Shown here piece after piece: positions 4,317-59,553 of a stretch of DNA of 64,000 nt. The DNA lies in NCBI GenBank assembly GCA_024137785.1, contig JAHRHZ010000116.1, positions 485,421 through 549,420 on the forward strand, in the 5' to 3' direction. Both the position numbers and the translations under genes were made by a program. Every line of letters starts with the position of its first letter. The first letter of the stretch is position 1. Under the pieces are notes generated by a model, which had not been told where the DNA came from, made no database searches, and saw only the letters and a program-made list of their open reading frames with translations. Source of the stretch: Ginglymostoma cirratum (lineage: Eukaryota).

Positions 4317-4353
4317 AGTTTTTGTGTGGTGCTAGCATCATTCTGTCATAGTG
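4317..4353 (-). other. Recombination signal sequence of the 4.4-kb V pseudogene
   Basis: Minus strand: CACTATG, 21-bp spacer (short), ACAAAAACT, directly after TAT CAC TGC ACT GTG (YHCTV). Confidence 0.75.
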
Positions 4354-4797
4354 AGTCACAGTGCAGTGATACAGCGTTGGTCAACTGCTTAAACTGGTAA
4401 ATTAATTTTCATTCTGAAGTCCCACAGATGAAGGATTTTTTGCAAATTCTGCAGTATCTTCAGTAGCTCTGGAGTGTTTGTTCAGAATAAACTCCGGCAT
4501 TGTGTCTGAGCGCTGCCAGTACAAATACAACTAATTATCGTTGTAATCTTTCGTAGTAGGTCAATTGCAACGCCGCTGCGTCTATTCTAACACCTGAAGT
4601 GAGCGGCTGAGTGACAGAATTTCCAAGATTCATATCTGATATAGAAAAATATGAATAACTAAAAGTACACATTTGGACAGGAGTATACAAACCCAGACAC
4701 GCTTCGATTTAGACCATGCTTGATAAATTGTGCCAGCAGAATTACGCACACCTGTGAGAAATGCCTCCAAAGGAGCACAAATTTTGAATAGCCTGAT
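4354..4797 (-). pseudogene. TCR alpha/delta V pseudogene (family A)
   Basis: 46-nt leader 4752-4797 with ATG mutated to ATC (IRLFKICAPLEAFLT-G/gt). Acceptor tatcag, then V exon 4354-4635: MNLGNSVTQPLTS...LYLYWQRSDTMPEFILNKHSRATEDTAEFAKN...FTSL...YHCTV, with stops and frameshifts. Confidence 0.85.
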
Positions 4798-5130
4798 TGT
4801 CGCTGCGTGTTCTTCCAAACGGCGGGAGGATACCTGAAAGAAACATTTCTAAGTGTCACCCTCCATAAGTTATTGAAGTCTCTCAGAATGTGATCACTTC
4901 ACTGCCTTTCCTCGCCAGTGGTTCAGTAAAACGAGAAGCTGGTGAGGTGGCTCTCCTTAAATGGAAGCAGATTGAGATGGGTAACACTCAGTTATCTTGC
5001 AGACAGTACGATTTTCATAACTTGGAAAGGGGCTTTAGCGAATGATTTCATTGCACGTATTCAATTCACGGAATATAAGTAGTGCTGCTAAGGCGGGCAA
5101 TTGCTATGAATTTCGGAGTAGGTTCCACAC

Positions 5131-5489
5131 TTCTCCCTCCCTCTCTCTCTCTCTCTCTTTATAACCACACACCCATAACACCGATTGAATATATTTACTA
5201 CAGAGGTAGGTAATTCATTGAATATTGACGGAATTGCGATTTAGTGGCATGACTTCCTGAGGTTGAATTGAGGAGGACAATAACCCAGGATATTCTATAA
5301 ACGGTAAATTAGGTTATCTTTCAATAAGTTCATGCCTGAATATCAAATCGGTGTCCTTTCATGTTGTTTATTTCTGATTGTAATAGCCTGGATAACTCAT
5401 TCTTTCCTTAATGCATTCTTTAACACGCATGCATTCACACAAATGCGTGTACCTGCACACGTGTATACACACACACGCACACACACACA
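5131..5489. repeat. (CT)n and (CA)n microsatellites
   Basis: CT run at about 5131-5158 and CA run at about 5466-5489. Confidence 0.8.
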
Positions 5490-6076
5490 AACAAACACTT
5501 TTCATAGATCTGTATTTAAAGTGTCCAACAATGACAATTTCAGTTGGATAGTGACGTTCTCCTGACTATGAACATGGGCTCGACAGAGTCAATGGCTTCT
5601 TCGCATTCCCTTAAGCAATATACCAACACATCATCTTATTTTGCCATGTTATGCTTGATGAAATGGGTACGTTTGCTCACATCTCCCTATTTCTTTGTTA
5701 CCTTTCTGTGATTTTGGCTCTCATTCACTTTATTATACCACTTCTCATTATCTTTTTTATTTCTTGCTATGTCGATTTTTCATGCACATTGCTGGTGATA
5801 TGGCTCTCCTTCTCTACTTTTCTTTCAATCATTTTGTCTCAAATATTTTCCAACCATTCTTCTTATCCGTTATTGAATCTGAATATTGTTGCTGCTCTCG
5901 AAAATATGCATCCTCCAGCTCTCCCTCTCACTGTCCTCGTGTATGTCCATTCTATTCTCTTAAAGCTCTTATTGTTCTTCATGCTCTCTTCTTTTTGTTT
6001 ATATATTTTGCTGTCTCCGAAATTCTGGCCACCGACTCCAGAAAGTTCTTTCTAAGAACTTGCTCGTATAAATTCG

Positions 6077-7171
6077 CAGAATGGGTTACACACTGAGGAC
6101 GTGGGCACTTTTTGTTAAACTAAGTCCATAGATTTACATGTTGTCCTTAAACAAAGTTCAAGACCTAAGATCTCTTTGGAAATTCGTTTTTGCAGATAAT
6201 TTCTAATCATATTATAAACAGTTATATCAGGCAAAAATAAAGAAATGAGTAAGGCCGATTGCAATGAAATTTAAATTCGCAGTCGACAAGTTGGCATCCA
6301 GAAACTCACTCTGAACAAATACTTTGTCTTAACAAACTGTGAACAGTGACTGCAGGAAACCGACATGAGAATTGGGCAAGTGCTGTTCAGAATTACAGGC
6401 AGGAGAGCAAAAAGGAACATAAGGAGAAAACAAATAATTTAGCTGTAATCGGTGAATTTATGAAGTTCATTGTGACATTCCAGTTCAGAACAATAAGAAC
6501 AGCTACGAACTCGAGGGCAGAACGGTGGTCAGTGGTTGGTACTACAACCTCACAGCGCTAGGGGCGCGGGTTCAATTCCAGCCTTGGGTGACTGTCTGTG
6601 TGGAGTTTGTACGTTTTCCCCATGTCTGCGTGGGTTCCCCCCGGGCGCTCTAGTTTCCTCCCACAGTCCAAAGATACGTAGGGTAGGTGGATTGGCCATG
6701 CTAAATTGCCCATAGTGTCCAGGAATGTTCAGGTTACTTGGATTAGACATAAGGAAATCAGGCACAGGGGAATCGTACTGGGTGGGATGACCTTCAGACG
6801 GAAAGTGTGGACATGTTGGGCCCAATCACCTCTTTTCATACTTTAGGGATCTATGATCTTAAACTTAGAAGTTTGACTGCCTGCTCTTCTGTCCAGGCAT
6901 ACAATGTTGTTCACTAACAACTTCTGCTAGCATGGCTACATTAATATGTAAGTTCCAAATTGATACCATGTGCCAACTGCGAATTTAAATTTCATTGCAA
7001 TATGTCTTATTCATTTGTTTATTTTAACTGATATCACTGTTTATCATATCATTAGAAATTATCTGTTCAAACGAATTTCCAAAGAGATTGTAGGTTTTGA
7101 ATTTTGTTTATAAACAACATGTAAATCTATTAACAAAAAGTGCCCACGTCCTCAGTGTCTGACCCATTCTG
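6077..7171. repeat. Diverged inverted duplication, arms about 6077-6309 and 6948-7171
   Basis: Left arm cagaatgggttacacactgaggacgtgggcactttttgttaa...ttgcaatgaaatttaaattcgcagt is the reverse complement of the right arm, with scattered mismatches. Confidence 0.9.
6514..6860 (+). mobile_element. tRNA-derived SINE, HE1/V-SINE-like
   Basis: Pol III B box ggttcaattcc, central tgtgtggagtttg...tctgcgtgggtt...tttcctcccacagtccaaaga domain, CR1-like tail. Confidence 0.85.
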
Positions 7172-7599
7172 AAAAGCTGTGAGAAAAGCTGCCTTTTACT
7201 GCCGTCTCGTGAGGTGTACGTATAATCAGTGCTTTGACCGTAAATTGAGAGGAAGTGTTAATATTTATTTTTCAATCAATGTACATGCTTGTGCAATGCT
7301 ATGCCTCTGTGCCCAGCAGATTCGGAGGTAGGAGTTCAAGCTAAAGCTTATGATACAAAGGTGGGTATATTATCACGTTATGGCAAGTCAACTCGAAAGA
7401 GTAACTATGTTCACCTAAAATATCAGATTTAATCATTGATTGATAAAGTTTGCGTTTTATATTCCTCATAGTGATATTGGACTTTCGAGAGTCCTGAAAT
7501 GTAAACAACTAGAAATTTCTTTGGATTTCTGTTGCATTTCTCACTAAAAAACATCGGGTTGCCAGTGAACTTTTTTTTTTAACATAATCGAGGGCTGTT

Positions 7600-8330: not shown

Positions 8331-8344
8331 TTTTAACGAATATC

Positions 8345-9649: not shown

Positions 9650-11280
9650 GAGCACACGACCAGAGTTGATAGGAAGGCAGCCAATCAGGGAAGATGGTAG
9701 GGCAGCAACAATGGGAAGTTCTGGGGTAATTCGGGATATATAGCAGAAGTTCATCCTAAGGAAGGAGAAGCAATCTAAGAGCAAAGCAAAACCACAACAG
9801 CTGACAAGTTAAGTTAAGAGCCGCATAAAAACAAAATAAAAAGGATATAATATAGTGAAGATTATTGGGAAACTATATTATCGGAAAACCTTGAAAATAA
9901 GCAGAGAACAACTGATAAAAGTAATAAATGCAGCGAAGATTACATATGAGAATGCTAGCTACTCATATAAAAACAAATTGCAAGAGTTAGTTCTGAATAT
10001 ATGGAAGATAAGAGAAGTACAAGAATCTGCATTAGGCAAATGGAAAATGAGGTGGGAGAAATATTAATGAGGAAAAAAAATAGTGTTGGAATTGAATACG
10101 CATTTTGCATCAGTTTTCACGTTTGAAGACCCCGATGGCATATCACAATTTCTGGAGCGTCAGAGGCATATTTGAGTGCAGTGGACATCATGAAGCTGGA
10201 GGTGCTGGGGCAGCTGAAAGGTATGGAGGTGGGTAAGTCACCCAAACCGATGTGCTGTACTGCAACATTCTGACGGAAATATATGAGGAGATACTGGAGA
10301 AACTGATGGTGACCCTTCAGGAATCACTGGAGTCAGACAATGTGCTAGAGGCGTGAAAAATGGTTAATGTAACACGGATCTTTAGGAAGGGAGAGGCATT
10401 TAATAGTATAAATTACAGGCCAATTATCCTGACCTCATTTATTAGTAAGTATGTAGTGACCATTATTAAGGATACTACTTGAAGTGGGTGGAAAAAAAAA
10501 GTGGAAGTCATGCCTCACAACTCCATTGGAATTATTTGAGGAGGTAACGAGAAATTTAGACACAGAACAGCCAGTGTACGTGATCTGTTTGGCTTTCCAG
10601 AGGCCTTTGAAAAGGTGAGCATTCATTTAGAGAGGACAAAAAAAAACAAGAGTCAAAAAAAAAACAAGAGTAGAGATGTCCTGCTGAAAATGTAAACGGC
10701 GATCCACGGATCATTTTTGGGCAATTATGTGAGGTCTTTTAAGTTCATATCCAAGGCAAATTGTGCTGGCCTTGGCGGGAGTGAGGGTACTGGGGGCAGA
10801 TGCAGAGGGGATTCCCAAGAATTATCCTGGGAATGTAGTGCTTGACATATGAGGAACTGTTGAGGACTTTAGATCCGTTCTCAATGGAGGTTAGAATTAA
10901 AAGGGAGATCTTATTGAGCCGCACAGAGTACCAAGAGGCTTGGATACAAAGACCATAAATAAGATATTCCTTATAGTAAGACAGTTTTGGACCGTAGGTC
11001 ACAGCCTTAGCGTGAAGGAACGGATCTTTAGAACTGAGATGAAGAGGAATTTCGACAGCCGGACGGTGGTGAACCTCTGGAACTAGTTTACACAGAAAGT
11101 TGAGGAGACCGAATCATTAAGTGATTTTAAGGTAGAGATAAATATGTTCTTGATTAGCAAGAGATCAGAGACAGAATCCAGGAGAGAGGCTTTATGAAAC
11201 ATTTTTGCCATGATCAAATGGGAGAGCACATTAGTGAGCAGAATTACGTCTTTCTGCTCCGATGTCTTATGTTCTTACTG
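9650..11280 (+). mobile_element. Decayed CR1 LINE, RT and 3' end
   Basis: Remnants of FASVFT.ED, NYRPI.LTS and KSCLT.LLE.FEEVT; ends tcttatgttctta. Confidence 0.8.
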
Positions 11281-12326: not shown

Positions 12327-12365
12327 AGTTTTTGTACATGTTGACTGTGTCCCTATAACAGTGTG
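12327..12365 (-). other. 23-RSS of the intact V at 12.4 kb
   Basis: CACACTG, 23-bp spacer, ACAAAAACT. Confidence 0.92.
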
Positions 12366-12798
12366 GGACGCAGTGCACAATGATACACGGCGGAGTCAGA
12401 GACAAGAACCCCAAGGACTCTCAATGTAACAATTCTTTTTTCGTTGTCCAAGAAAGCAGCGAACCTGCTGCGGAAATTTGGAGCAGTCTCGCCCATATCA
12501 TTGCCGTATCTCTTCAATACATATGTCAGGGAACTCCCTGGGTATTGAATATACCAGAAGAGGTAAGGAAAAGTATCAGTCGTGGAATAATTGCAGCTCA
12601 GTGTGATAATCTCTCCTTCCTGAGCTGTTAAATCAGACGTATCCTGAGATACTGAATCTATGCCACTCGTACCTGCAACAGGAATATAAAATTCAGATTA
12701 AAAATTGGAGGATGAACACGCAACAAGCACTAGTCTAAAAAGAAACACTCACCAGGCATCAAGATCAGTCCTATCAGCAAGAAACGTGAAGAACACAT
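12366..12798 (-). CDS. TRAV: Apparently functional TCR alpha/delta V segment (family B); leader 12753-12798, V exon 12366-12672
   Basis: Leader MCSSRFLLIGLILMP-G/gtgagt and acceptor ttgcag. Open frame GTSGIDSVSQDTSDLTAQEGEIITLSCNYSTTDTFPYLFWYIQYPGSSLTYVLKRYGNDMGETAPNFRSRFAAFLDNEKRIVTLRVLGVLVSDSAVYHCALR, followed by a 23-RSS. Not in the ORF track. Confidence 0.93.
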
Positions 12799-13556: not shown

Positions 13557-13578
13557 AAATGAGAGGGAGGTAAACTCA

Positions 13579-17834: not shown

Positions 17835-17873
17835 CGTTTTGGCATGGAATTTGTGTCTTTGCCTGTCACTATG
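17835..17873 (-). other. 23-RSS of the 17.9-kb V
   Basis: CATAGTG, 23-bp spacer, GCCAAAACG. The heptamer has lost the invariant CAC. Confidence 0.75.
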
Positions 17874-18169
17874 CTGACTCACCACACAATAATAAATTAT
17901 CCAATCGTCTGTGCTCAATTCATTTATGTTGAAGTAACCATACTTATTGTTTTTGTCTACAGTTGCCAAATAGCGTACTGATATCTTGAATTGCTTCAAT
18001 GCTGCTGATGCTATTATTCCCCAGCGTGGAGCCTGCCCTCACTTCTGCTGAAACCATTCCATGGTGTAAGTATCCAGTAATTTATATTCACAGCCTAACT
18101 GCGCTACACCGCCATTATGCTCATTGATTTCCATTGTAGATAGACTCGCTGGAAATGCACACAGTCTGC
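17874..18169 (-). pseudogene. TCR V pseudogene of a distinct family, single in-frame stop
   Basis: Acceptor ttcacag, phase 1: GRLCAFPASLSTMEINEHNGGVAQLGCEYKLLDTYTMEWFQQK*GQAPRWGIIASAALKQFKISVRYLATVDKNNKYGYFNINELSTDDWIIYYCVVSQ. TGA at 18039-18041. No clean leader found. Confidence 0.88.
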
Positions 18170-27958: not shown

Positions 27959-28412
27959 ATGCAGCTACTCAGCATCTGAATTGCGTGTGGAGAATTTCAA
28001 ACAGGTAAATTTAGGGGCAATAAACTTCACATTGTTTTTACAAATCATATTTAAAATTGACACCAGATTGACATTTTAGAATTGATACCTCTTTTTCCTT
28101 TCAGATTTGATTCATTGCGATTCTGTCACTCAGCCAGTCTTCTCAGATCTTCGGATAGAAGCAGAGGCAGTGACTCTCTTCTATACCTCTGATACTGCAT
28201 TGAGCAGATATGCATTGCTCTGGTGCCAACAGCACCCAAAACACATAACCTGAGTATACTTTTTGGAAGATACTGAAGGTGATGAGTAAACAGAAACTTT
28301 TGCTGACTATCGTTTCTCTGCAAACTTGAGATCTCCAAGAAATTCACCAGTTTGACTATCACAGGACGAGAACTGACTGACGCTGCTGTGTATTTCTGCA
28401 CTTTATTAGACA
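27959..28412 (+). pseudogene. TCR V pseudogene (family A)
   Basis: Leader 27959-28004 MQLLSI*IACGEFQT-G/gtaaat and acceptor tttcag. Exon from 28105: DLIHCDSVTQPVFSDLRIEAEAVTLFYTSDTALSRYALLWCQQHP...RFSA...KKFTSLTITGRELTDAAVYFCTLL. First Cys lost; frameshifts and stops. Confidence 0.92.
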
Positions 28413-28451
28413 TACAGGGATGAGAAACGTTCTCATCCCTACACAAAAACT
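28413..28451 (+). other. Damaged 23-RSS
   Basis: TACAGGG, 23-bp spacer, ACAAAAACT. Confidence 0.8.
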
Positions 28452-30049
28452 GCCTTAGGAAGGTATTTGGGACTCCATCAGTGGCGTTTACGCTAAGTCC
28501 AGGAGAACTACAAAGTGCAGTCAGGAGCTCAAAATCATACCGAAAGAAAACCAAAGTAACCTCGGATCAACCTGTCAAGCAACTGTTTCCTGGCACTGTT
28601 GGACAAATAAAAACTCTAGTCTCCGAGCACACTCACAAGTACAGAACAGAATCATCTGTGAGCACACCTGTTCTCATCCCCACCCACAACAAATTTTTGA
28701 AGCGAGATTTGTGGACAGTGACCCGAATTTCAATAAACAGATACAACCCAAATAATCAGTTTGAATTTATTATGAATTGTTCCACTCCTGAAATACCGGT
28801 AAAGTGAGAATGAAAGCGTAGTCTGTTAATTATCAGCATCAAACGAAAGAGTTAATAACATATTCTCTCACGGAAGACAGCACGAATTAAAACAGACATT
28901 GAGAGAATACAAAATTGCACCTGTTTTCAGAAATGTTCTCTGAAATTGTCAAATTTGCCCAGTATGTTCAAGCCATCCATGATGCAGAAACTCACTCTGG
29001 GCAAATACATCCTTTATGACTAACTGAGGCTTTGAATCTGGGATACTGACACTGGTGATTGAGAAAGAGCTGCTTAAATTGACAGGCAGTAAAACATCGG
29101 TAAACACAATGGGAGAAAGTAGATGGCGTGGCTGAATTCACTGAAGGGTGCTGAATATAAGCAGGAGACCGAGATATATAGACAATTTAAGGATATATTA
29201 TAGGGGGAGAAGTAGACCAGTGGATCTATTGAGATTGCTATGCCGTAATAAAACGTCACCAGTGAACTATTTCCGTTCAGTTTGAAACCCGAGGTGTGAG
29301 AGACTGGAATATTTTCAGAGTTGACGCTTTAGCATTTAAACAGATTGTTAATTGCTGATTCAAAGAAGTTCCAGGATGCCTCTGTACCTATTAAATTGGA
29401 GAATAAATTATTCCTCAAGCATTTGGAAGCAGACTTGATGAGTTACTGCAGTGCTGCTTATGGCACATTGTCGTCTGCAGCTTCTCATCCCGCTGGTCAG
29501 GAAATATTTCCTTCAGCTGTCTCGACGTTTCAAATAAATATGATCATTTTATTAAGGGCAATGAGGAGGTTCTTGCAGTTTCTACGTCTACTGCACGCAG
29601 ATAGCCAAGTGAGCAGATTCCCATCACATTTACAAATTGTGCATGCTATAGTTTGAGCGGAGATTGCCAAAACAGCCCTCATGCCATAATGCAACCCTTT
29701 CAAATAATCACGGCAAATTTAATACATTCCTTACGCCTCTGTCATTCCAGATAGAGGACCTATTAGAAAAATTAGCATCCAATGAGTTACACTAGATTAA
29801 AGTCACTGTTGCGATGTCAGAAATGAGACAACAAGCTGAACACAGCAAATGTATGCAAAGACAGAAATATCATAGGGACAAAAAAATTTGCATGGACATC
29901 ATTAATGCACACGGTTTGTTCGGCCTCGTGTATATAGTGAGACAAAGAAACAGAAACAGGGTGAGAGAAGGGGAGACTGGATCCACTCTAGGATGCTGAA
30001 AATAATCAGCAGGCTGAAATAGATAGAGCATACGACTATAAATAACGGG

Positions 30050-31339: not shown

Positions 31340-31707
31340 ATGAAATTTTCAGTTTCTGTTTTCATCATCTTCTCAGGGAGAGCTACACAAACTGGAATCA
31401 CGCCAGTTTAAGGAATACTGCTTTGGTTATTCGGTATCAAGTCGGAGGTGATCTTGACTCAACTAGATACTGTGAGACTAACGTTTGGGTTTGACACAGG
31501 CAGATATCACATTTACTGGTGCCAGGAAAGTCCCACGAAGGGTCTGCAATAACTAATCTAGTACTTTAGTGAATAGGGCATGAATTTAAATCGCGAGGCT
31601 GGAACACGAGTTGCTGCTTGCAAAGTCCTTTCAAGAAATATCTTCACTTTGGCTATATCAGGCCATTCAGGATGTAAGACAGCCTGACAACATATTGTGC
31701 ATAATGG
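31340..31707 (+). pseudogene. IgH-like V pseudogene (TAILV or IgHV candidate)
   Basis: Leader-like MKFSVSVFIIFS-G at 31340-31376. One frame from 31434 reads GIKSEVILTQLDTVRLTFGFDTGRYHIYWCQESPTKGLQ*LI*YFSE*GMNLNREAGTRVAACKVLSRNIFTLAISG, then frameshifted TYCA and heptamer-like CACATGG at 31708-31714. Confidence 0.72.
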
Positions 31708-31859
31708 CACATGGGATAGAACGATTACATTCTCAAAGTATTGTTTTCTTGCTCTCTCTTGGCCACATAATGGTCCTGGTTTCCTGATTTAACAACTCGC
31801 TGCATAAATGTCCATGTCCTCAAGCCGACTGTCTTATTTAGGTACAATCATAAGGCCTT

Positions 31860-34310: not shown

Positions 34311-34365
34311 TAATTGCTTAAAAGTTTCGGAAGCATGCATGATTTTAAATATCTTTTTTTTTCAG

Positions 34366-34655
34366 ATCTGATTCATGTGAATAATGTCATTCAGTTTTGT
34401 CCTCACCTGTTAATATGCAGGGGAAACTTCTCTCTAAAAGGTTCATTTATGCTTCAACATGGAACAGGTATTATCTATTCTGTTACCATCAACAAATTGT
34501 TACACGCTCAGATTGTTTTGTTTTACTGTGTAAGTACAGGTAATCAATAAATTGACGCTTCTAAAAACAGCATTCATCGAGACACTGTTTCTCTAAATAC
34601 CAGACTTCGAATAAATTCAACACTTCAAACAATTCAAGATTTCAGTTAACTGTAA
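34366..34655 (+). pseudogene. TCR V pseudogene (family A), 3' end lost
   Basis: Acceptor ttttttcag, then DLIHVNNVIQ, YASTWNRYYLFCYHQQ and QTSNKF...FQLT, collinear with the 28.1-kb copy. Confidence 0.7.
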
Positions 34656-39048: not shown

Positions 39049-39485
39049 ATGATTGCATCTCATTTGGAGTCTTGCCATACATCCATTTAGCTGTACTGAC
39101 TATTCCTCGGTTTATTTTTATTGGTTATTCCCCACTGATGTGGATAGAAAAATGATTTCGTTCAACTTAATATAAATTGTGAATCTTGTAGGTGATTGTT
39201 GAGGCGATGCAGTTTAACAGACAGTGACCACATCACCGTGACTGAGGGAGATGATGAGCAGTTGTTCCGTAATTTCAGAGCGACAGTAGGTATGGATATA
39301 TACCGACTATATTCTCGCAGATCCATGGAGATTCTGCTGCAGGGAAGCCAGTACAGTGGGAACGCAAAGAGATTTCCAGGGGACAGATTTTCCTCAAAGC
39401 TTCATCGCACGAACTTAATCATCCAGCTGAATATTTCGAAAACAGACCTGACAAGTTCTGCAATGCATTTCTGTGCACTGGGACC
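39049..39485 (+). pseudogene. TCR V pseudogene
   Basis: Decayed leader from 39049 and acceptor ttgtag at 39191. GDC*GDAV*Q...ITVTEGDDEQLFRNF...IYRLYSRRSMEILLQGSQYSGNAKRFPGDRFSSKLHRTNLIIQLNISKTDLTSSAMHFCALG. First Cys and Trp lost. Confidence 0.88.
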
Positions 39486-39524
39486 CATAGAGACTCATAG
39501 CTGGTCTGACCCTGTGCAAAAACT
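39486..39524 (+). other. Damaged 23-RSS
   Basis: CATAGAG, 23-bp spacer, GCAAAAACT. Confidence 0.8.
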
Positions 39525-40329
39525 GTCAAAGTCTCATGACAACACATCAGGCAAATAGTGAGGTAAGCAGTGTATCTGAAATGTTTTCAAATTTTGCCGC
39601 GGTATGACATATGTTTCCATGTAAATACTTAGATATTTTCATAACAAATGTATTAGTGAAATATGCCAATGTCACTCTTTGTGAATACTAAGCAAAAAGC
39701 AAGTGTATTTAGCACATTTCTTGATGCCACAAAATGATTAACTGCTGCAGCTATGAGAATGCAGTCAACAAACGGAAGCCAGCATTGAACTTTAGAAGTT
39801 AATATGCCAAATGAATTCATTGGTTCAATGGTGATTAGTGTTGCTTCACTATTTTCGAGACCTTACCTCCTTTTGTTTCAAAAGGGTGTTCCTATTATCT
39901 ATTATGCCAATTGCATCGATCCTGCGACATGAGACCTAATCTTAAAATCCTCTGAAGCAGATGTGCTCGGGATGAGAATTAAATCTCGTCTGAGGTGTTC
40001 ACTGTTTTGTCCTTGTTCGGGTAATTATGTTGCAACTGAATCTTCACGTACAGAAATACAGAAATAAAACCTCCAAACGTGCATATCAGGCTGAAGAGTG
40101 CTATTCTTTCTAGAAGTTATTTAACTGATGACGAATAGGTAGACAAGCAGCCGACTCTTTGCGCCTCAATCAGCAACAAATTACCACCAGTAACGAATGG
40201 AGCGAAGGACATTTCACAGAAAGCTGAGACATTGAGAAGGGGAAATAGAATACTTTCACGCTCTAGAGCGTTGACAAATAGTCGCAGACGTCCATCATCA
40301 ATATACCTGTGGAGAGAAGAACACTTAAA

Positions 40330-43677: not shown

Positions 43678-43716
43678 AGATATCGTACGGGAGCACTCAG
43701 TCTTTATCTCACTGTG
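43678..43716 (-). other. 23-RSS with a perfect heptamer and weak nonamer
   Basis: CACAGTG, 23-bp spacer, ACGATATCT. Confidence 0.85.
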
Positions 43717-44119
43717 CTTCATTGCACAGTGATAAACTCCAGCGTCCAACAGAGCTGGATTGACAATATTAAGAATGTTATAACTTCTTTTTGGGTCAAC
43801 AAATAGATTGAATCGCCCGTTGGTAGTGTTCCCATGAATAGCAGATAGGATGAGTTCCATGCCATGGTTTTCTCGTTGTTTGTACCAGTGGATGCTATCG
43901 GTACCAGTTGTGGCTGCATTACACTGGATTGCAATTGAACGTTCTTCTTGTGCGAACATCTGCTCTTTTTGCTCGATTGCAGCCTCTCCACTAATCACTG
44001 TTGACAAAGAAGCGAAAAGGCAAATGAGAGGAAAAAGGTTTTTTTTAGAGGCGAATGATCTTTCGCAAGGAACACTTACCGAAAATCAATAAGCACAAAA
44101 TTATTATTATTCCATACAT
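43717..44119 (-). CDS. TRAV: Apparently functional TCR alpha/delta V segment (short-CDR2 family); leader 44080-44119, V exon 43717-43997
   Basis: Leader MYGIIIILCLLIF-G/gtaagt and acceptor caacag. VISGEAAIEQKEQMFAQEERSIAIQCNAATTGTDSIHWYKQRENHGMELILSAIHGNTTNGRFNLFVDPKRSYNILNIVNPALLDAGVYHCAMK, followed by the RSS. Confidence 0.92.
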
Positions 44120-45596
44120 TGAATTTTCCATTTCTTTGTGCTCGCAGTATTGTGACAATCAATTTGATTTGAGATGATTCTGGACGTATTGACACTACCT
44201 TTGTGTCACCTTTCAAAGAACACATCTGTTTTATATTCACTGTGGGCATGAGAGCAAACCAATGCTGACTTGTCAGTCTCACTGACACTCTTTCTTGACA
44301 CGGTATTCCTCACTTGTTGACTCAAATTCTTAGTACCAGCTGGGAATAGCGATGTGTTGATTCAGACTCTTGTGTTTTCTCTATCTTGGAAGTGGAGTCA
44401 AATCTCACCGATGCAGAGCGTTCCGAATGCCAATGGATTGGGGACTGAGAAGTTCCGTAATTCAGACATTGACCATTCGTATGGTGCACATCAATTTGAA
44501 ATACACTTTTGTGACAAAGGATGGACTTTTGCGATTTTTCAACAGAGATTGATTATCTCGTATATGATTATATTTTATTATCTTCTATTCAAGAAGGACC
44601 GAAGATAAAGAATTAAAAGTTTGTTTTTTTTTGCTGACAAAAATCATTAAATGAATATCAAACCACTGAGGATTGTTGCTGAAGCATTACCGTGAGATAT
44701 GTATGATGAATTTGTCTTTCATTGCAAAACATTTGTGATATTTGCATTCTACACCATTCACCACTACAAAGTCCAATCTAAGTTCAGAATAATTATATAC
44801 AATATGTAAACACGTACATACACAATGGGTCAAAAACTGTTGATGTCTCCTTTGACTATATATAGAATAAATGGTAACTCGAGATCTTCTGTGCAAAATC
44901 TAAGATGACAATCTTGTGATGTGATGAGTAAATTCTTCATTGTCTAAGTGCAGTCTTTCAGATCAGAGGTGACACAAAGTCTACACCTTCCTTTTTAAGG
45001 CAGATGGTAACATTCCTGGAATTATTTAAATGGAGAGAACTGGAGGTATTCTCCACTTTTTGGGCATTGTGCACTCCACAACATCGGAAAACCAGGTTAT
45101 ACAATCATCTCAATTCTTAGTTTTTGTTTTCGCTTGTGCATAATCTTTCTGTAGTCTCTCTTACATTACAACGGCTATTATACTACGAAAATACTTCGTT
45201 CAGTCTGAAGAATTTTCAGACGTTCAGTCGTCTTGAGCCAAATAGATACACAGATATAAAGGCTGAGAAAGAGATGGATGCCCAGACGTAGAAGGCGATG
45301 CTGGAAAAAGGGTCTGTGAAGAGGTAGGGAGAGCAAATAGAGATCCCAATGAAAAATGAAAGATGAAAATGGAGAAAACGAGAGTGAGCGGAAACGATAG
45401 AGTTAGGGACAAAAATGCAAAGAAAAATTGAGATAGCTGATGAAAGGCTGAAGAGAAACAGAGAGAGAGAGATGACAGCGTGAATACGAAATTAAGTAAA
45501 AGATAAAGATATTGATTCAGAGAATCCGAGATGGAGTGAGAGACGTCAGTGCCAGAGTGGGAAAAATAGGCGATTTGACAGTCAGGGGAGCCAGCG

Positions 45597-45615: not shown

Positions 45616-46644
45616 TAGCAGTTCTTCATCACAATTGGATAATGTTTGGCTTCTCAATTTACTGGAGGATTTTGATGCACGATTCTTCACGTTATTATTA
45701 TCTATATTCCAGTATCATTGAATGCAGTTGAACTTCGACACGAGAGTTAACACAAATTCTGTTAAAGTCCTACTCATTTCCTTTATTTTAATTTAAATAT
45801 CCCAGCCATTCCGTTTAAATTAATTGGTTTTAAACAATATAGTATCAGGGCATTGCTGATGTCATCTTTAGGGTAAAAGTTTGGCACAACATCTTGGGCC
45901 AAAGGGGCTGTACTGTTCTGTACTGTTCTACGCTCTATGTTCTATGTTCATCATGATTAATTCCAACAGATGCAATAGATATGAATATGACTCCGGATGT
46001 GTGCATGTTATGCACGCCGTGTATTTAAATGTCACGGTCTCCATTATAATCATACTTCGAACTTTATGTTATAGTATTGCTTCTATAATGTCTCTCCCAT
46101 TGTTGAAACACATGATTTGGAGAAACTTAATGTTCTACAGTTTGACATTTTGGAAGACACGGTGGGAGAAGGATTAAATGCAGCAAGTTTGAAACTACGA
46201 GTATTTGAAAGGAAGAATTGGGACTTGATAAAATAATTCAAGGTGACATGTTATATTTTGGGTTACTATAAATAGCTCACAATTTCAGAATCCAGGACCA
46301 CATATCCAGCAGTTGAGGTCTTTCACTGGGCAAAACCACTGATATTTCGCCAGATGGTAGCATTTTTATTTGCTATCATACAGGCCCCCTCACACAGGAC
46401 ACTCAACAGTCTCCACTCAGGGAGATTCAAGGACAGGATTCCAAAGCTTATATGAACAAAAAACATATTATTGCTGTTAAGAATCAGAACAGGGTTATTC
46501 TAATATTCCTGCCCTTAGCAGCTATTCACTGATTGGATTGTGTGTCTAACACTCTAAATTAATTTTGGACTAAACATATTTCATCTTTTCTTCATTTCAC
46601 AGATCCAGTTACCCTGTTTGAACGTGTTTACTTGTTTATTTGGG

Positions 46645-46870
46645 ATCTGAGTCACGCAGATTCTTTTATACATCGACTGCCCTGAAATGTTTGTACAGAA
46701 GGGGGAGTGATGGCTTTAAGCCATATTTGTGATCCTCCACGGGATGGATTGGTTTTGTTCAAAAACTCCGACAGTGTTGAAGATAAAGCAGAAATTCCTG
46801 AAATATGATTCGTTTTGAAACTCTAAACCTTAACTACATTCACCAGTTTAACTGTCAGGTGCTAGCTTTC
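46645..46870 (+). pseudogene. TCR V pseudogene (family A), heavily decayed
   Basis: DLSHADSF at the start and LVLFKNSDSVEDKAEIPEI*FVLKL*TLTTFTSLTV, matching the 4.4- and 28.1-kb copies. Confidence 0.7.
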
Positions 46871-47345: not shown

Positions 47346-49070
47346 ATGCGATTTCTCAGTTTTTAAATTTCATTAGGTCCATTTCTGGCAGTTAAGTGTG
47401 AAGTCTCTGTAATGTTCCAAATATCATTTCCTTTTGTGAAAATGCTGGCTTATTTGCTTCTGTGCATATAGGGATTATATTTGATAAGAATATAAGAACA
47501 TAAGAAGTCGGAGCAGGAGTAGGCCATCCGGCCCCTCCAGCCTGCCCCGTCATTCAATAAGATCATGGCTGATCTTATTGAGGCTTGGCTCCACTCACCC
47601 GCCCATACATCATAACCCTTAATCCCTTTACTGTTCAAAAATTTATCTCGCCTTGCCTTAAACACATTCAGCGAGGTAGCTTCAACCGCTTTACTGAGCA
47701 GGGAATTCCACAGATTCACAACCCTTTGGGTGAAGAAGTTCCTCCTGACATTAGTCCGACATCTGCTTCCCTTTATTTTGAGACTATGCCCCCGAGTCCT
47801 AGTTTCACCTGCTAGTGGAAACAACCTCCCTGACTCCACCTTGTCTATTCCCTTCATAATCTTATATGTTTCTATAAGATCTCCCCTCATTCTTCTGAAT
47901 TCTAATGGAATATCCCAGCCTACACATTCTCTCCTCATAATCCAAAGCTCTCAACTCTGCAATCAATCAAGTGAATCTCCTCTGCAACCCCTCCAGTGAT
48001 AGTATACCCCTTCTCAAGAAAGGAGACCAAAACTGCACGCAGTACTCCAAGTGTGGCCTCACCAGTACCCTATAGAGCTGCAGAATAGCCTCCCTGTTTT
48101 TACACTCCATCCCTCCAGCAATGGCAGACAATATTCCATTTGACTTTTTAATTACCAGCTGCACCTGCAAACCTACTTTTAACGATTCATGCACAAGGAC
48201 ACCCAAGTCCCTCTGCACAGCAGCGTGCTGCAATTTATTTTACCATTTAAAACATAGCCCATTTTACTGTCATTCCTACCAAAATGAATGACCTCACACT
48301 TATTAACATTGTACTCCATCTGACAGACATTTTACCACTCACTTAGAGTATCAATATCCCTCTGTAGACTTTCAGTGCCTTCTGCACACTTTGCTCTACC
48401 ACTCATCTTAGTGTCGTCTGCAAATTTTGACACACTACACTTAGTCCCCAACTCCAAATCATCTCTGTAAATTGTAAACAATTGCGGTCCCAACACTAAT
48501 CTCTGAGGCACACCGTTAGCCACTGACCGCCAACCAGAAAAAAAAAACACCCATTTACCCCTACTCTTTGCTTTCTACTCGTCAACCGTTACTCCATCCA
48601 TGCCTATACATTATCTGTAATACCATGCAATTTTATCTTATGTAGCAGCCTTTTGAATGGTACCTTGTCAAATGCCTTCTAGAAATCCAGATTCATTGCA
48701 TCCACAGGCTCCCCATTGTCCACCATGCAAGTAACTTCCTCAAAGAATTCCACCAGATTTTAGATTGGAGTTATGGAGATTATATTTCTCAATGACTGCT
48801 TTCTGAATTTAAGATGGAAGTGCTCGCGTTGACATTGACCTGTACCTAAGAGAAGTAATCAAACAGTTTTTATTCGCCTGATACAGATAATACCCAAGCA
48901 TGCAAACCAAGCTTATATTATCGAAACACTGAAGGGATTCAGAGAAAAAAGCGGATTTTGCTTTGTGTAATTTCTCTATTGAGCTTCAGACGAAGAATAA
49001 CTTCACTAGTTCGTCTATCTGTGGACAGTGATGATGATTTCTGCACTGCATTACTGTGTTCTAAGGTTTT
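47346..49070 (+). pseudogene. TCR V pseudogene (family A) with a CR1 in its intron; leader 47346-47391, V exon 48764-49070
   Basis: Leader MRFLSF*ISLGPFLA-G/ttaagt. Exon DWSYGDYISQ*LLSEFKME..ALTLTCT...*YR*YPSMQTKLILSKH...KADFA..NFSIELQTKNNFTS...SALHYCVLR, then CACAGCA at 49071-49077. Confidence 0.85.
47484..48757 (-). mobile_element. 5'-truncated CR1 LINE
   Basis: ORFs 48332-48550 (GVPQ..VLGP, KFADDTK), 47967-48233 and 47450-47938, with a (TTCTTA)-like tail. Confidence 0.93.
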
Positions 49071-49479
49071 CACAGCAATAGACTATGATTATACCGCTGT
49101 ATGTAATGTGTTAATGGTAAATCCAGATGGGTTGGGTTTGTGTACAATCATAGGCCGATAACACCACAGTGTGCAGAATGCTGACAAGCTCTCAAATGTA
49201 TGTCGAAGGGAAACCAATTAAATAGTCGACGTAAACACAACTTAAACAGTCACTCCACTGTTTCCAGGAGTGGCTGAGGAAATAAACGGAGGAACAAAAA
49301 GGAACTGTCGGAGAAATGAGAGAATTCCATTTGAGAGCTGTGAATTTCGAAGTTTTCCAGACAGCTGAAGACTTACCACGTGTACACAATGGAAGGCGCT
49401 CATTAATCTTGTCTGTTTCGGTTGTTGTTCGAATGGGAGGCCGTGATCAATGACATACCAGAAAGACACGCCTGACTTC

Positions 49480-50023: not shown

Positions 50024-50326
50024 GTGCTCGTGGTAAGAATTTTATTTCGACAAGAGCCAATCACAGTGATTCATTTTGAAGGAGATTCGGTGATTTCAGA
50101 CATCAGTTTCAGAAGTTCCAAAACGCCTGGTTCATTTTAATTAGGACGCCTGGACGGTGATAAAGGTTTTCAAATCTCCATAACGAACCACACAACTTAT
50201 TTTAGAGCACAAATTTTGAGGTCATGATTTCCTATATGTATTGACAAGACGAAAATTGAGGGGTATTTCACCTATCAGTGACCTGCGACTGTTTGACAGC
50301 AGAGTGTATTACTGCGGATTGGGACA
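50024..50326 (+). pseudogene. TCR V pseudogene
   Basis: QEPITVIHFEGDSV...CIDKTKIEGYF/ISDLRLFDSRVYYCGLG, followed by GTCAGTG, a 23-bp spacer and TTAAAAAAA (50327-50365). Confidence 0.75.
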
Positions 50327-52344: not shown

Positions 52345-53915
52345 CAAATAATAATGCAACACAGGGGCAGGACCTTCTATTCTGCAAGGCTCCATAGACA
52401 CATGCTGCCCTTCCATACAAACACTGTCTTGCCTTTGAAGTTCCGTATCCCTCTATTCCTTCGCTATTGATGTATTCCTCCAGATGCTTCTTGAATGTTA
52501 CTATTGTGTCTGCGTTCACCAGCTCCTCTGGCCGTATGTTGCAGGCACTTACGATCTTTGTTCGAAAATCTTGACTGGCACACCTCCCCCAAATCCAGCA
52601 CATTGAACCTGTAGTTCAAAGAAATTGAAGCCTCTACGCTGGGAAGAAGCCTCATAATTTCCAATCTATCCATGCCATTCATAAACTTATAATCTTTCTC
52701 CAGGTCACAGCTCAACCTTCTGCGCTCCACTAAAAGCTACCCCAGTATATCCAAGAGAGATAGAAAGAACTGCCGATGCTGGAGTCAGAGATAATACAGT
52801 GTGAAGTTGGAGAAACACTGCAGGCGAAACAGTACCAGAGGAGCAGAAAAGCTGACATTTTGGGTCGGGAGCCTTCTTCCAAAAATCTGTCTATCCAACG
52901 TTCCTTCACAGCAAAAAATCCCCTATAACAGGTAACATCCTGTTAAACGTCTTCTGTGACCTCTCCAAATTTCTTCTGATAGTGTGGTGACATCAGAACT
53001 GTAAGCAATTTTCCAAATGCGGCCTAGCTGGTATGTTATAAAATGCAGAATAACCTGCCTGTCAGTATAATCAATGACCCTTTCAATGAAGGTAAGTGTG
53101 CCCCAAGTCTTTTTTACTAAATTATCTAACTGCATTGCCACCTTCCGTGAACTGTGGTACTGCCGACCCAGATCTCTCCGCATATCAGCACTACAAAGGG
53201 TTCTATCATTCACTGAATGATTTCAACACCTCACATGTGACGGAATAAACTCCATCTGCCATTTTCTGCGCATGATTCCAACAGTTCTTTATCCTGCTTT
53301 ATCATCTGACAATTCACCTCACTACCTGCAACTTCAATAATATTCGTATCATGTGCAAACTTAATAATTAGACCAGCCTCGTTAAGCTCCAAAATGTTTA
53401 TGCAGACTACGAACAGCAAAGATCTCAGCTCTTATCCCTGTGGAACACACGCTTGTAACAAGTCTTTACTCTGCAAAGCATCCCTCCATCGCTATCTTTT
53501 GTCTCCTATGACTAAGCTAGTTCCGGATCCATCTTGACAGCTCACCCCTGATATCACGTGAATTCAACTTTTGTGCCAGTCTCCCACAAGGGACCCTGTT
53601 AAAATCTCCACTGAAGTCCATGTACAGTACGTTAAACGCTTTCCTATTCATCATCTTTGTCAAATCCTCGAAAGACTTGATCGAGTCAGTGATCAATTGG
53701 CTTCCTCTGCACAAAAACAAGCTGTCTACTGCTAATAGGTCCATTTGCTTCTAAATCCGCATAGCTTTCGGATCTTAGAATCTTTTCCAATAATTTCACT
53801 ACCAATCACGCTGGTTTTACAGATCTGTAATTTCCTGGATTATACATGATACTGCTCTGAAACAATGAGACAACATTGCTTATTATCCAATCCTCTGCGG
53901 CCTCACCTGTGGTCT
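52345..53915 (-). mobile_element. Decayed CR1 LINE with a nested Penelope terminal repeat (about 52755-52885)
   Basis: ORFs containing LYMDFS.DFNRVP.GRL, KFAHDT, RRDLG and ERRRL..DL. Confidence 0.85.
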
Positions 53916-54576
53916 GATGTTCTATATTTTTAACTGAATCTTTTTGATAATTTGAAAATCAAACTATTTCTCCGGTCATTCGGGATCTGACTATCTATAT
54001 TTATTGACATTTCTCTCTAAGCAGCGGTGTTCGACGTTAGTATCTCAGTTTCCTTGGAAACAGTGCATTGTAACAAGCTAGGATCCTTTGCTGTGGTTAA
54101 GGGATACCTGAGGAGTAATATAATAGTGATATTTAAACTGATGAAGAATATCGATACTCTGTTATGAGAAGATGCTACTACGTTGAGGATTTCAAAAATG
54201 TGTATCATAAAGACAAGACGAGGGAACAAATCGAATAGAATTCAGAAGAATCATCTTTCCGTTTTAGAGTATTGAACTCACCACCAAAACGAAACGTAAA
54301 GTCACATACATCGATGTAAAAGCAAGCCTGAAGATCCGTTGAGACAACAAAGGAATGAGATGTATAGATTTTAGAAAAAAAAAACACAACGAGGGAAGAT
54401 TTTCATGTGATTTGTCAGCACCTAATATAGACCACACAAAATTAATTCGATTTCTTATGCTGGAATTTCTATTCATTTTCAATATGAACAAAATTATTTC
54501 ATATTTCGATGATCAGTTACGCTCAGTTCAATATCTAATTGATTATTTACGCTTTATTTAACCCTACATTCCACAA

Positions 54577-54855
54577 ATAAGCAATTGAAACTGTATTACT
54601 AAGCTGGGTTGTTTTCTCACACAGCCAGAAGGAAAAGATGCGACTTTAATTTGTGCCTACATTGGTGATCGCAATTATTTATTCTGGTACCGAGTTCGCA
54701 TTCCAGTGTTACGTGAGTGGTGGCGAATAATTGAAGGCAGGTTTTGCTCGGAAATGGTTTTATGATACAGTCCAGCAGTCAAACAGGATGTACTTGTTCA
54801 CCATCTCTGATCTATAGCTCAGTGACACCGCTGCTTGTTTCTGAGCAACGAAGCT
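54577..54855 (+). pseudogene. TCR V pseudogene
   Basis: LTQPEGKDATLICAYIGDRNYLFWYR, then after a frameshift KAGFARKWFYDTVQQSNRMYLFTISDL*LSDTAACF*ATK. Confidence 0.85.
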
Positions 54856-54894
54856 CAAGATGGTAAGAACGACCGAAAGCCTCGTGCAATAACT
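54856..54894 (+). other. Damaged 23-RSS
   Basis: CAAGATG, 23-bp spacer, GCAATAACT. Confidence 0.65.
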
Positions 54895-56869
54895 GCTGCA
54901 GGTTTCTGGGTCACAGCTGCTTCATGTGAAGGGCTGTTTATAAAAGGATCTCAGAAAATTACACTTCAACACATTACTGCGTGCAGAGACCTGGTCACTG
55001 TGCTCCTAAACATAAATGAAACCTTTCATACCCAATACTGTTTCGAATTATTGCATTCCCTGTGTGAGGACAGAACGACCTGCTGCTTCTTTGGAGAGCT
55101 CTGGGAATCTCCCATTCATATTTAGAGATATAAATGAGGTGGTGTAAAACTACTTTCATCCATGCACAGTTGTTGTGTAAAGAGCTTTTGTCAGAGGAAC
55201 AGATAATATTGCTTTGAGGTATCATTGTGCAATGAAAATTTTGTATATTAGTATTGAGAAAAGACATTGAAATGTGGAATTTCACGCAAAAAGTTTGGCG
55301 AGGTGAGGAAAATCTACAAGAACTGTAATATCCTAATTCAGCTCCTTCCAATGCTAAAGACACCCTATATTTGATAAATGAAGAGTTCAAACTATAATGA
55401 ATTCCTGATGCAGTGTTTTGCGTATTGGAATAAAAACTGTCGTTCAATGATTAATGGAGGAAGAAACTACAAGGATGATGTCATGTTTCCAAGGCACCGA
55501 GGAAAACGGTCTGAAAAACAAAATAATACAAAAGATGAATTGAAAATAAAACAGACGTTAGCTACAAGTATCAGAAGTATTTTGTGAAGATTGTATTTAT
55601 AAGATAAGTTTCAATTTAAAAGTAAAGTTTTCTTTGCTTGCATGATTAACATCGCAATTATCTGCTGAGTCCAACTTCGTTAATTGTTGGAGCCAATATT
55701 TTGTTTGGAAATTTCTGTTGCAACATCTCTAATATATAAACGTACATAAAGTAACTAATCAACATTCTGGGGTATGCTCTTATGTATTCCACGTAAAGGA
55801 ATCAGAAGAAGCCTCATTAAGGCTGTATCAGTTGTTCTTATTCTGAATTCAGTGTACTCTAGTCAATAAAGTTAAAATATCTATGCTGTTCTGCAGCCTA
55901 TCCCTTATCTTGTTCAACTTGTCCATTGCAGCAGTTTGCTGAAATTTGTTGATTAAATCTACCCCTCTTCATAATTTGCTAAAAGATACAGAATAAAAAT
56001 CTGCACCTCAGGCCAACTGCATAGAGAACATATTTGCATTTTAACGATGAGATTGTAAATGTCGGGTCTTTAGCACAAACGAATTGAATGTGAAACAGCA
56101 CTAGTCAAAATGGTGACTTTTTTTTGGTCACAAATTTTTCAAGAGATAAATGCAACAACAGTTATGTTGCCCGATATAAAGCAAAGAAAATAAATTAAAT
56201 TATTTTGCAATTTGCAACTTTATCAAAGCAATTGGTTTCTGAGCATTAGAATTTGCGCCATTATGACCTGCAATGAAATAGGGAAATAAACATACTTAAA
56301 ATTATTATTTTGTTATATTCAACGTTACCAAGGAAAGCTAGTGTGTTTCAAAAAGGGAGAGCGTACAAATAAAGTGAAGGACACTTGACCAATATTGTTT
56401 GTCAATGAAAGTTGCTTCAATTTGCTAAGTTACCAGTCAAGAGTACTGAAGGACTGAGAAATGAGTTAATCCCCGCGGGCAAAATATTAGCAGAACAGAT
56501 GACGGATTTGAACAGGTCGAGTTGGAGCTGAACTGATTCAGTTCGGAGTTGGTAGGATGCTGAGTCATATCCTATCCCGCTGTCAATGGGTTCATTCATG
56601 TTAGTGTCACCAGGTAGATCGAATCAACTTGCACCTCCATTGTACATCAACCGATGTCAGCAGAGATTTGGAAATAAGAACAAATCGAATAGATACTGGA
56701 GGAGGGCTCTTGGCCCTTCGAACTTGTGTGGTCATTCAATTCCATCAGAAACTATCCCTTCATATTCAGCAAACGGTTTTAACCAAAACTTCAAATTTCC
56801 ATTTCAAATTAACAAGTCTATCAAGACCGGTTCAAGGTTTTTCAGAAGATTTGTAGTTCAGGCTGTGGA

Positions 56870-57414: not shown

Positions 57415-57453
57415 GGTTATTGTACAGGGTGAGTGCGCCCCTGCATCAATGTG
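57415..57453 (-). other. 23-RSS of the intact V at 57.5 kb
   Basis: CACATTG, 23-bp spacer, ACAATAACC. Confidence 0.92.
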
Positions 57454-57883
57454 GAGTTCAGCGCGCAGAGATAGATGGCAGAGTCAGAGAAACGAGCCCT
57501 TGCGATATATAGTGGAATTGTTTTCTTGTCTGTGTCCAAGTTTGCACTAAAGCGGTTGGAAAACTCTGAAGATGTCTCCTCTTGCGCCTTGCCATATCTC
57601 TTCAGTATATATTTTGGAGATTTGCCAGGATACTGGATATACCAGAAGAGAGTTTCTCCAGTGTACTCTGCTGTATAACTGCAGTTCAATATTGCCGTCT
57701 CTCCGTCACGAATCCACAATTTGCTAGGGTGTTGTGAAATTGAATCTTGGCCACTCGTTCCTGCAAAAAGAATACATCGAATGTGTCAGTCAGTATCGTT
57801 TATGAAGCACACAATGATGATTTCATTTCAGACTTACCAGACAGCAAGACTATTATTATTAGCGGAGAATACAATAAACTCAT
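57454..57883 (-). CDS. TRAV: Apparently functional TCR alpha/delta V segment (family B); leader 57838-57883, V exon 57454-57760
   Basis: Leader MSLLYSPLIIIVLLS-G/gtaagt and acceptor ttgcag. GTSGQDSISQHPSKLWIRDGETAILNCSYTAEYTGETLFWYIQYPGKSPKYILKRYGKAQEETSSEFSNRFSANLDTDKKTIPLYIARARFSDSAIYLCALN. Same 307-nt exon length as the 12.4-kb paralog. Confidence 0.95.
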
Positions 57884-57973
57884 GATATCTGGATCGACAG
57901 CAAATAGTGCGTATTTTTTCTGTTATGTAGATTCTTCTCATCTGATACCAGCTACTGATATTCACTCAGGGAG

Positions 57974-57981
57974 TGGCATCA
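57974..57981 (-). promoter_or_regulatory. CRE-like promoter element TGATGCCA
   Basis: About 90 bp upstream of the ATG, positionally matching TGACGCCA of the paralog. Confidence 0.5.
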
Positions 57982-58604
57982 CACATTGGGAAACTCAGCA
58001 GGATTTCTCGTGTTGTGATTTGTTCCTTTCTGAGATTCGACATCAGCTCTAACCCAATCACAATTAACTGAAGGGTCAAGGCAACTAATTATATCCAATC
58101 GCATCCTTTGTTGTTTTTGCACCTTTTTTATTCCCTTCATCTACCTCCCATTTTAAGGCATTGTGTGTCTCTTTCTCGGTTTAACAATTTTTGTCTCGGT
58201 GTTTGTTTTGAAGTTCAATGGCTCGATTTTCAGATAAGTGAATGTTTCTCCATATTTCAGGGAAAATAAGAATAAATTAAATGTAATGTCATATTCGGAT
58301 ATTAACCAATGTGTCTGCTACTCAAATGATTTTAACTGTATACTGCCCAGCAAAGAAACGATACATAGTGACTTGATTGAGAAAAGAATTACGGCTGAAC
58401 ACAATCATCTTGTGCTGTTAGCTTTCTATCATTACTCAGTCACGATGCATACTCGAAAAAACGTTTGAGCCCGACGGCCCTTGGGCTTGCAATGACATTA
58501 TACCACCTTGGAAATGTATTTCTCCGTAGATAGGCCCCAAATCCAGAAATCATATCGGAAAATGTTTATTTTCTTCTCACTGAGACACCTTCAAATGATC
58601 GTAA

Positions 58605-59050
58605 AGAATAATGGCAGGAATGGGCCTTTCAACCCTTCGACCTCTCTTCTTCGCTTAAGTAGGCCGTGGCTGATCTAACTGCGACCTCAATTCCATTTTT
58701 CTGACGCTCTCCGCCACCTTTTTCTCCCGTGCAGTGGTAAACCGTGACGAATTATCACTTGGAATATATTCAACAGAGAACTCCCACTGGTATCTTTGGA
58801 GTATCTTCCATAGACGAATAACAATCTCATTATACTCCCAAGATCTACTTCATCACATCTCCATCTGTAACGGAAGACTGGTAGATTTTAGACTCGTCTC
58901 CGAAATTCCAAATTCCGAGTTGAGTGAAAACATCCTCTCAACCTCCTTTCCTGCAAGGCCACTCAGGGTATTTTATATTTCATACCAATCAACGTTTATT
59001 CTTTCGTCACGAAGACCTGGAAATATCTGAAAATGATCCTTGATTAAAAT
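58605..59050 (-). mobile_element. Decayed CR1 3' end
   Basis: Resembles 47500-47920. Confidence 0.5.
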
Positions 59051-59244
59051 GATCAACAAATCTTATATTTCCAACACCGTCGAGCCTTGGCTACAATAAG
59101 GGGAATCAGATAATGCTCGATAGTAACATTCCTTCTCTGTCCATATTCTCTGGTAAGTTGTCGCTGATCTTTACCTGATAACTGTTCTTGATTATCGAAC
59201 TGGAGCAGATTTCTTTGAAATCCTAAACACCCTCATTTCCCCAA

Positions 59245-59553
59245 GGTCTCAGTGCTCAGGAATACACGGTACCGTCTATCAGTCTCACGTAATTCGTGAA
59301 CAGATGGAAAATGATTCTTTCTGTACTGAGATTGCTGCTAAGCTTTTCAAACCTAAGAGGTGCATTGTCATATGAAAACCAAATGGATACAAGCATATAT
59401 TCCAGATGTCTGTGCAGATCCTGGAAGTACAAGAATAGTTTATTGTTGTAACTGAAATTGTAACAGAGTGCTTGTATGATATTATTGAAGCTTTGCCCTT
59501 TTCTACTTCGATTCCCTGTAGTGATTGAGGTACTGAGTTTCTACTGTTCTTCT
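59245..59553 (-). pseudogene. TCR V pseudogene
   Basis: Acceptor ttttcag, then KNSRNSVPQSLQGIEVEKGKASIISY, and after a frameshift KLFLYFQDLHRHLEYML...LSSNLSTERIIFHLFTNYVRLIDGTVYS*ALR. RSS lost. Confidence 0.8.

Follow-up and report, generated by a model that had tools for sequence, protein, structure and literature searches.

Strand orientation and intactness of V genes in the T cell receptor alpha/delta locus of the nurse shark Ginglymostoma cirratum

[quoted passage not shown] As far as its main text and table S1 go, TCR-type variable (V) genes, IgHV-like V genes and NAR-TCR cassettes lie upstream of diversity (D), joining (J) and constant (C) segments in the order D-J-Cdelta-Jalpha-Calpha, with IgH-type C exons nearby and V gene models on both strands. 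These features appear to be shared by the locus of the nurse shark Ginglymostoma cirratum, of which a stretch of 64,000 nucleotides (the window) was analysed together with further parts of the locus. The window spans positions 485,421 to 549,420 of contig JAHRHZ010000116.1 (assembly GCA_024137785.1), here called C116. The elasmobranch paper lists gene models only, and the words "orientation" and "pseudogene" do not occur in its main text; the present analysis adds pseudogene counts and asks statistically whether intactness depends on strand. As a shark TCR alpha/delta locus, this one is of a known kind, and the finding reported here, a lower share of intact V genes on the plus strand, is a modest statistical tendency within it.

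The teleost TRA/TRD locus, in the available parts of PMC8559430, resembles the shark locus in that most V genes face opposite to the C genes and join by inversion, and that V genes of the minority orientation are expressed (13 of 14 functional TRAV genes of that orientation in salmon, where about half of the V genes are pseudogenes). However, teleost V genes lie downstream of C-alpha, whereas those of the shark lie upstream of D, mostly face away from it and have finely interleaved strands. Inverted V arrays with usable minority-strand V genes have been described in teleosts and also in newts (available text of PMC12698447). Mouse Igk, in the accessible parts of PMC11153149 and PMC13190342, likewise has mixed deletional and inversional V genes, several J segments for secondary joins and use of both orientations; the shark locus differs from it in having D segments and two C genes. 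In contrast, mouse Igh has only deletional V genes and linear scanning by RAG (PMC11153149, same parts), whereas in the shark most intact V genes are probably inversional, with V genes of both strands rearranging. Among the papers listed by a literature search, none relates the strand of V genes to their intactness in a shark locus; published maps of the nurse shark locus, which may show V orientation, were outside its coverage. The word "orientation" is absent from the main texts of PMC5931798 and PMC3964593.

Strand and intactness of V genes

Among 258 V loci in about 2 Mb of the TCR alpha/delta locus, 39 of 159 were intact on the minus strand and 11 of 99 on the plus strand (odds ratio [OR] 2.6, Fisher p 0.009), as tabulated in the way that an earlier sequence-only reading of the window had proposed. 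The sequence covered comprised all 756,842 bases of C116, the first 800,000 of the 1,157,724 bases of contig C282, and 500,000 of the 2,779,225 bases of contig C115 (1,075-1,085, 1,120-1,400 and 2,565-2,775 kb, partly N). Searches by profile, blastn, tblastn and nhmmer gave 285 clusters, which merging and filters (E <=1e-5, at least 80 bases) reduced to 257. Manual editing then gave the 258 loci: two faint window remnants (50238..50321 and 59262..59539) were added and one V cut by an N run was dropped. A V gene was called intact when its core frame was open and its heptamer began with CAC. One V lacking the first Cys was reclassed as non-intact, and two open members (one per strand) of a family that lacks this Cys throughout were scored as intact. 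A plausible leader was present in 9 of the 11 intact plus-strand V genes.

The bias differed among contigs, with 9/27 minus versus 0/15 plus V genes intact on C115, 16/59 versus 4/47 on C116, and 14/73 versus 7/37 on C282, where the OR was 1.0 and there was no bias. It persisted when C282 was flipped (OR 2.3, p 0.012) and, over all contigs, outside the window (36/153 versus 11/91, OR 2.2, p 0.03); when both the NAR cassettes and the window were excluded, the OR was 1.7 (Fisher p 0.20, stratified p 0.084). The earlier proposal that function tracks orientation therefore held beyond the window as a bias, but not as the statement that every opposite-strand V is dead, since 11 plus-strand V genes are intact and both of those tested have rearranged in frame. 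The residual strand bias is real but modest, and orientation is a tendency rather than a rule. Decay of pseudogenes was equal between strands (101 and 77 loci, p 0.43).

The window contained 14 V-type loci, six on the minus and eight on the plus strand. Three of the six minus loci and none of the eight plus loci were intact (Fisher p 0.055, or 0.070 if the plus loci are counted as seven); the pattern is real, yet the window alone does not exceed chance. As the sequence-only reading had stated, the three intact genes are all on the minus strand, and each has a leader, a GT-AG intron, an open frame and a recombination signal sequence (RSS) with a 23-nucleotide spacer. The gene at 12.3 kb (12327..12798, family C) has its leader at 12753-12798, V exon at 12366-12672 and RSS at 12327-12365, with an intron of 80 nt and two RSS mismatches to the consensus. 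The gene at 43.7 kb (43678..44131), from a single-member family, has its leader at 44080-44131, V exon at 43717-43997 and RSS at 43678-43716; its intron is 82 nt, its heptamer equals the consensus and its nonamer is weak. The gene at 57.4 kb (57415..57883, family C) has its leader at 57838-57883, V exon at 57454-57760 and RSS at 57415-57453, with an intron of 77 nt and two RSS mismatches. All three matched Pfam V-set and showed the build of a TCR alpha/delta V segment, namely a leader exon, a V-set exon with the Cys-Trp-Cys residues and a 3' 23-spacer RSS; the best TCR matches of the 57.4 kb gene among solved structures were alpha chains.

Direction of J and C segments and use of both V orientations

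The 72 J segments found on C115 share the plus strand; nine of them precede and 63 follow a C exon at 2,625.8 kb, which has one match in the genome. A second C exon lies at 2,719.9 kb, both C exons are on the plus strand, and one D was detected by pattern. From their order, the two C exons are probably C-delta and C-alpha. No V was found between these exons or in the 55 kb past the second, and no J on C116 or on the first 800,000 bases of C282. The genome-wide J-RSS pattern was not enriched (60 matches versus 62 for a control pattern) and indicated two places on C115. At C115:2,611-2,720 kb, an N run of 15 kb lies among the 63 J segments.

A gap of about 1.18 Mb separates two groups of intact V genes on C115, and all nine of these genes are minus-strand, thus opposite to D-J-C. 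Neither C116 nor C282 has been placed, and the last V is parted from the first D by a gap of 100 N at a CA repeat (C115:2,603,984). C116 is a separate contig; collinear homology at each of its ends links it to C115, as does the joining of one of its V genes to a J of C115. Its start matches the C115 region ahead of the 1.18 Mb gap, its last V and the first C115 V past that gap share 91% identity over 632 bases, and the arrays run on the same strand. No sequence overlap was found between C116 and C115, the best match being this 91% paralog, and C282 is no haplotype of the covered parts of either contig. The gaps from the window to the end of C116 are all of 10 N except for one of 5,000 N, across which the strand of the array is kept. 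Two V-delta-17 primer-site peptides of the nurse shark (main text of PMC5931798) occur in the V gene at C116:103k. C116, and with it the window, is probably oriented as C115. Because every one of the 72 J segments, like the two C exons, is on the plus strand, the intact V genes of the window are likely to join by inversion, and the dead plus-strand ones would be those in deletional orientation, the one that RAG scanning favours. The polarity that the sequence-only reading had drawn from RAG scanning is therefore likely reversed. Independent support for V genes that face away from C comes from the epaulette shark assembly, in which the TCR-alpha model lies on the minus strand and the plus strand carries 15 of 24 upstream V rows, the first five among them (table S1 of PMC12227049).

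Two plus-strand V genes outside the window were checked for rearrangement in public sequencing contigs, with four runs each. For the V gene at C282:761k, leader-V splicing across a GT-AG intron was seen in two of the four runs (X1 and X9), and one X9 contig departs at the V end into 18 letters in frame with a J-alpha; within the covered DNA, the last 15 of these letters match only the J-alpha at C115:2,656.7 kb. The IgHV-like V gene at C116:586k, 37 kb to the right of the window, was joined in frame to a J-delta in one of its four runs. This X9 contig has a depth of 10.8 and differs from the V gene at 2 of 178 letters, the nearest paralog being 85% identical. It departs at the coding end, and the last 10 of the 30 letters that follow equal those with which the J-delta at 2,612.8 kb begins; this 10-mer occurs at four places in the covered DNA, one of which is the J start. 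Either junction is seen in a single contig, and the RNA status of its run is not on record. Runs X2 and X13 in the C282:761k check and runs X1 and X6 in the C116:586k check gave nothing on the V genes, and the minus-strand control at C282:762k yielded contigs with 8 differences in 122-151 letters, probably paralogs, which do not show use of a minus-strand V. The ratio of nonsynonymous to synonymous substitution (dN/dS) was 0.39-0.57 (median 0.50) in six pairs of intact plus-strand V genes and had a median of 0.41 in 48 minus-minus pairs; the pairs in this comparison are not mutually independent.

These observations set the locus apart from an Igh-type arrangement, in which functional V genes are only deletional to J and opposite-strand ones are unused: here the nine intact C115 V genes face opposite to J and two minority-strand V genes have rearranged. 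The Igk-type presence of functional V genes on both strands was found (39 and 11 intact), with direct evidence of use coming only from plus-strand genes. An Igk-type locus would also have a CTCF-based diffusion platform between V and J and scanning in secondary joins. On the favoured reading both orientations are usable, and RAG must accept both here, as at mouse Igk. With the germline map, existing thymus repertoires can serve for a direct test of whether V usage depends on orientation. Should V genes that face away from J, and the bias, prove general in sharks, inversion would have been the main mode of joining at the earliest TCR alpha/delta loci and would have left C-delta and unused V genes in the chromosome, with scanning in a strict single orientation as a specialisation of later date.

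Explanations for the strand bias

The excess of dead plus-strand copies is somewhat better explained as a relic of duplication history in a birth-and-death array than in any other way, and we lean towards this account with slightly better than even confidence. Each V family would have a home strand, block duplications and inversions would have scattered surplus copies onto both strands, and moved copies would have decayed more often than their originals, so that working copies stayed on the home strand. A moved duplicate generally decays more often than the original. The V array is composed of large segmental duplications, part of them inverted. Duplication history is favoured because a rule set by RAG should act alike in all families, yet the direction of the bias differs among them. 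Families A, B, C and E together with the NAR-TCR cassette genes had 31 intact minus-strand members but none among 51 plus-strand ones, whereas family D was reversed (4/10 plus versus 1/8 minus), families F, J, L and N were intact only on the plus strand with one gene each, and IgHV-like V genes were intact two per strand. Ig-type V genes adjoining C-delta share the strand of C in the stingray (6 of 6) and also in the catshark, according to table S1 of PMC12227049, and the working plus-strand IgHV-like V gene found here does the same.

Several points weigh against this account. If either duplicate has equal odds of dying, history alone gives no bias. The bias held after stratification by family (OR 3.0, p 0.008), in a shift permutation with strand runs preserved (p 0.006 overall, 0.0006 for C115 and C116), and on C115 and C116 with the window removed (22/80 versus 4/54 intact, p 0.004). 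A FastTree phylogeny was made of the 223 loci that reach 240 bases. Of its 23 independent pairs with contrasting strands, an average of 8.0 had the minus member intact and 1.5 the plus member (median p 0.065), and at least 45 strand changes were counted, so that many separate events lean the same way.

Weak orientation-dependent selection for the inversional majority strand, by which the majority reinforces itself, is a possible but clearly less probable explanation. A primary inversion by a minus-strand V would turn its J-proximal minus neighbours deletional and place them just upstream of the new VJ; secondary joins based on scanning would then pick these flipped genes, and plus-strand neighbours would end facing away. 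The robustness of the bias to the family, block and window controls speaks for such selection, the 63 J-alpha segments permit serial joins, and a flip-then-scan step is reported for mouse Igk in the available text of PMC13190342. Heptamers were perfect in 20 of 39 intact minus but 2 of 11 intact plus V genes (p 0.085; RSS mismatch sum p 0.049), and better minus-strand RSSs are what a strong-RSS model for inversional joining predicts (PMC11153149, available parts). However, this difference was gone at the family level (p 0.25), and similarity to a consensus is not measured RSS strength. C282 is unbiased, family D is reversed, the bias without NAR cassettes and window is the weaker one given above, intact plus-strand V genes are no more clustered than by chance (7 of 11, p 0.30), and scanning in sharks would have to be assumed. 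It is rather doubtful that the locus is inversion-first, with scanning in secondary V-alpha editing, lower use of minority V genes and a rate of death of these about two to three times higher; if true, the pseudogenes would preserve, as a fossil, flip-then-scan recombination of the Igk kind from the oldest jawed vertebrates.

Chance combined with non-independence, in which a few large inverted blocks happened to contain few survivors, is improbable. The heterogeneity of the contigs and the borderline p values of the window and of the tree pairs fit it, but the shift permutation and the unchanged result after flipping C282 do not. It is very improbable that V genes inverted relative to J are poorly usable under RAG scanning and so die, as the sequence-only reading had supposed: the window pattern and the overall bias agree with this, and a weak form would hold if the D-J-C block were misoriented across the 100-N gap, but the nine intact C115 V genes face against all J and C segments, as do the first five epaulette shark V rows against C (PMC12227049, table S1), and whichever way the block runs, the strands hold 39 and 11 intact V genes with two of the 11 rearranged, which already contradicts the absolute form.

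The idea that the plus copies of the window descend from one dead gene was rejected. They belong to four families (A four, B two, IgHV-like one and D one) and to no single clade, the two long family A copies lying in different clades. They could nevertheless share one old inverted block that encloses the intact V gene at 43.7 kb.

Broken V genes of the window and further observations

Frameshift-aware scores of the 11 broken window loci were 58-200, all above the maximum of 50 in 25 reversed-sequence controls; candidates at 41.6-42.0 and 50.9-51.4 kb scored 41 and 47, within the control range, and were left uncounted. The minus-strand pseudogenes of the sequence-only reading (4.4, 17.9 and 59.3 kb) were all recovered. 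The first (4317..4663, family A) has one frameshift, two stops and the heptamer CTCACTA. The second (17835..18146) is divergent, with one stop, the heptamer CATAGTG and a NAR-TCR supporting V-delta as its best match (36%). The third (59262..59539) is very decayed, with one frameshift, the second Cys gone and a score of 78.

On the plus strand, the seven V genes and the fragment near 50 kb that had been called dead are indeed broken, but the lesions differ from those described at three of them. At 39161..39531 (family D) there is no stop or frameshift, and the frame is open with the first Cys and the Trp gone and a CATAGAG heptamer. Damaged heptamers had been claimed throughout, but the CAC start is kept at 31.4 and 48.8 kb, where the nonamer is lost instead. 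The first of these (31427..31717) is an IgHV-like pseudogene with one frameshift and four stops that clusters with minus-strand IgHV-like V genes, and the second (48757..49101, family A) has two frameshifts and six stops. The remaining family A copies are a pseudogene at 28072..28458 (three frameshifts, two stops, heptamer TACAGGG), a partial one at 34353..34620 (two frameshifts, one stop, score 75) and a remnant at 46632..46850, which blastn matched at E 3e-7 and which has a score of 60 and two stops over 33 aligned codons. The lowest score, 58, belongs to the 3' fragment of 27 codons at 50238..50321, whose best match is family B, and a family B pseudogene at 54542..54904 has one frameshift, two stops and internal deletions.

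Outside the window, paired V genes, which we take to be a NAR-type V and a leaderless supporting V, were found on C115 and C282, and IgHV-like V genes on C116; NAR-TCR cassettes and IgHV-like V genes amid TCR V genes are what marks a shark TCR alpha/delta locus. The NAR-TCR-like cassettes sit at C115:1,240-1,244 kb, C282:44-569 kb and C116:70-97 kb. All 11 of their intact genes are on the minus strand and the five plus-strand ones are dead, which makes up a large share of the overall bias. A cluster of IgHV-like V genes with 23-spacer RSSs lies within the TCR array at C116:586-722 kb, with four intact, two per strand. Another V family, with about 16 assigned loci, lacks the first Cys and the Trp while having open frames, leaders and good RSSs; members include C282:761,321-761,682 (+) and C282:520,561-520,930 (-). 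It would be unusual for a TCR V gene to lack the canonical disulphide.

The region C282:1-800 kb contains large same-strand segmental duplications with a repeated module of mixed-strand V genes and is collinear with C115:1.18-1.39 Mb without being a haplotype of it. Window positions 10,803-19,153 stem from an old duplication on the same strand, with about 68% identity to C116:571.9-579.3 kb, in which the paralog of the intact 12.3 kb V gene is dead. Solitary RSS-like motifs occur in the window at 41,945 (+) and 49,173 (-), and no V-like sequence precedes the former (score 41, control range). Fragments resembling reverse transcriptase, which from their translations are presumably long interspersed nuclear elements (LINEs), lie at 848-2,536, 47,450-48,239 and 52,300-53,900 of the window, and short palindromic repeats at 18.3-18.5, 25.2-25.4 and 56.9-57.0 kb.

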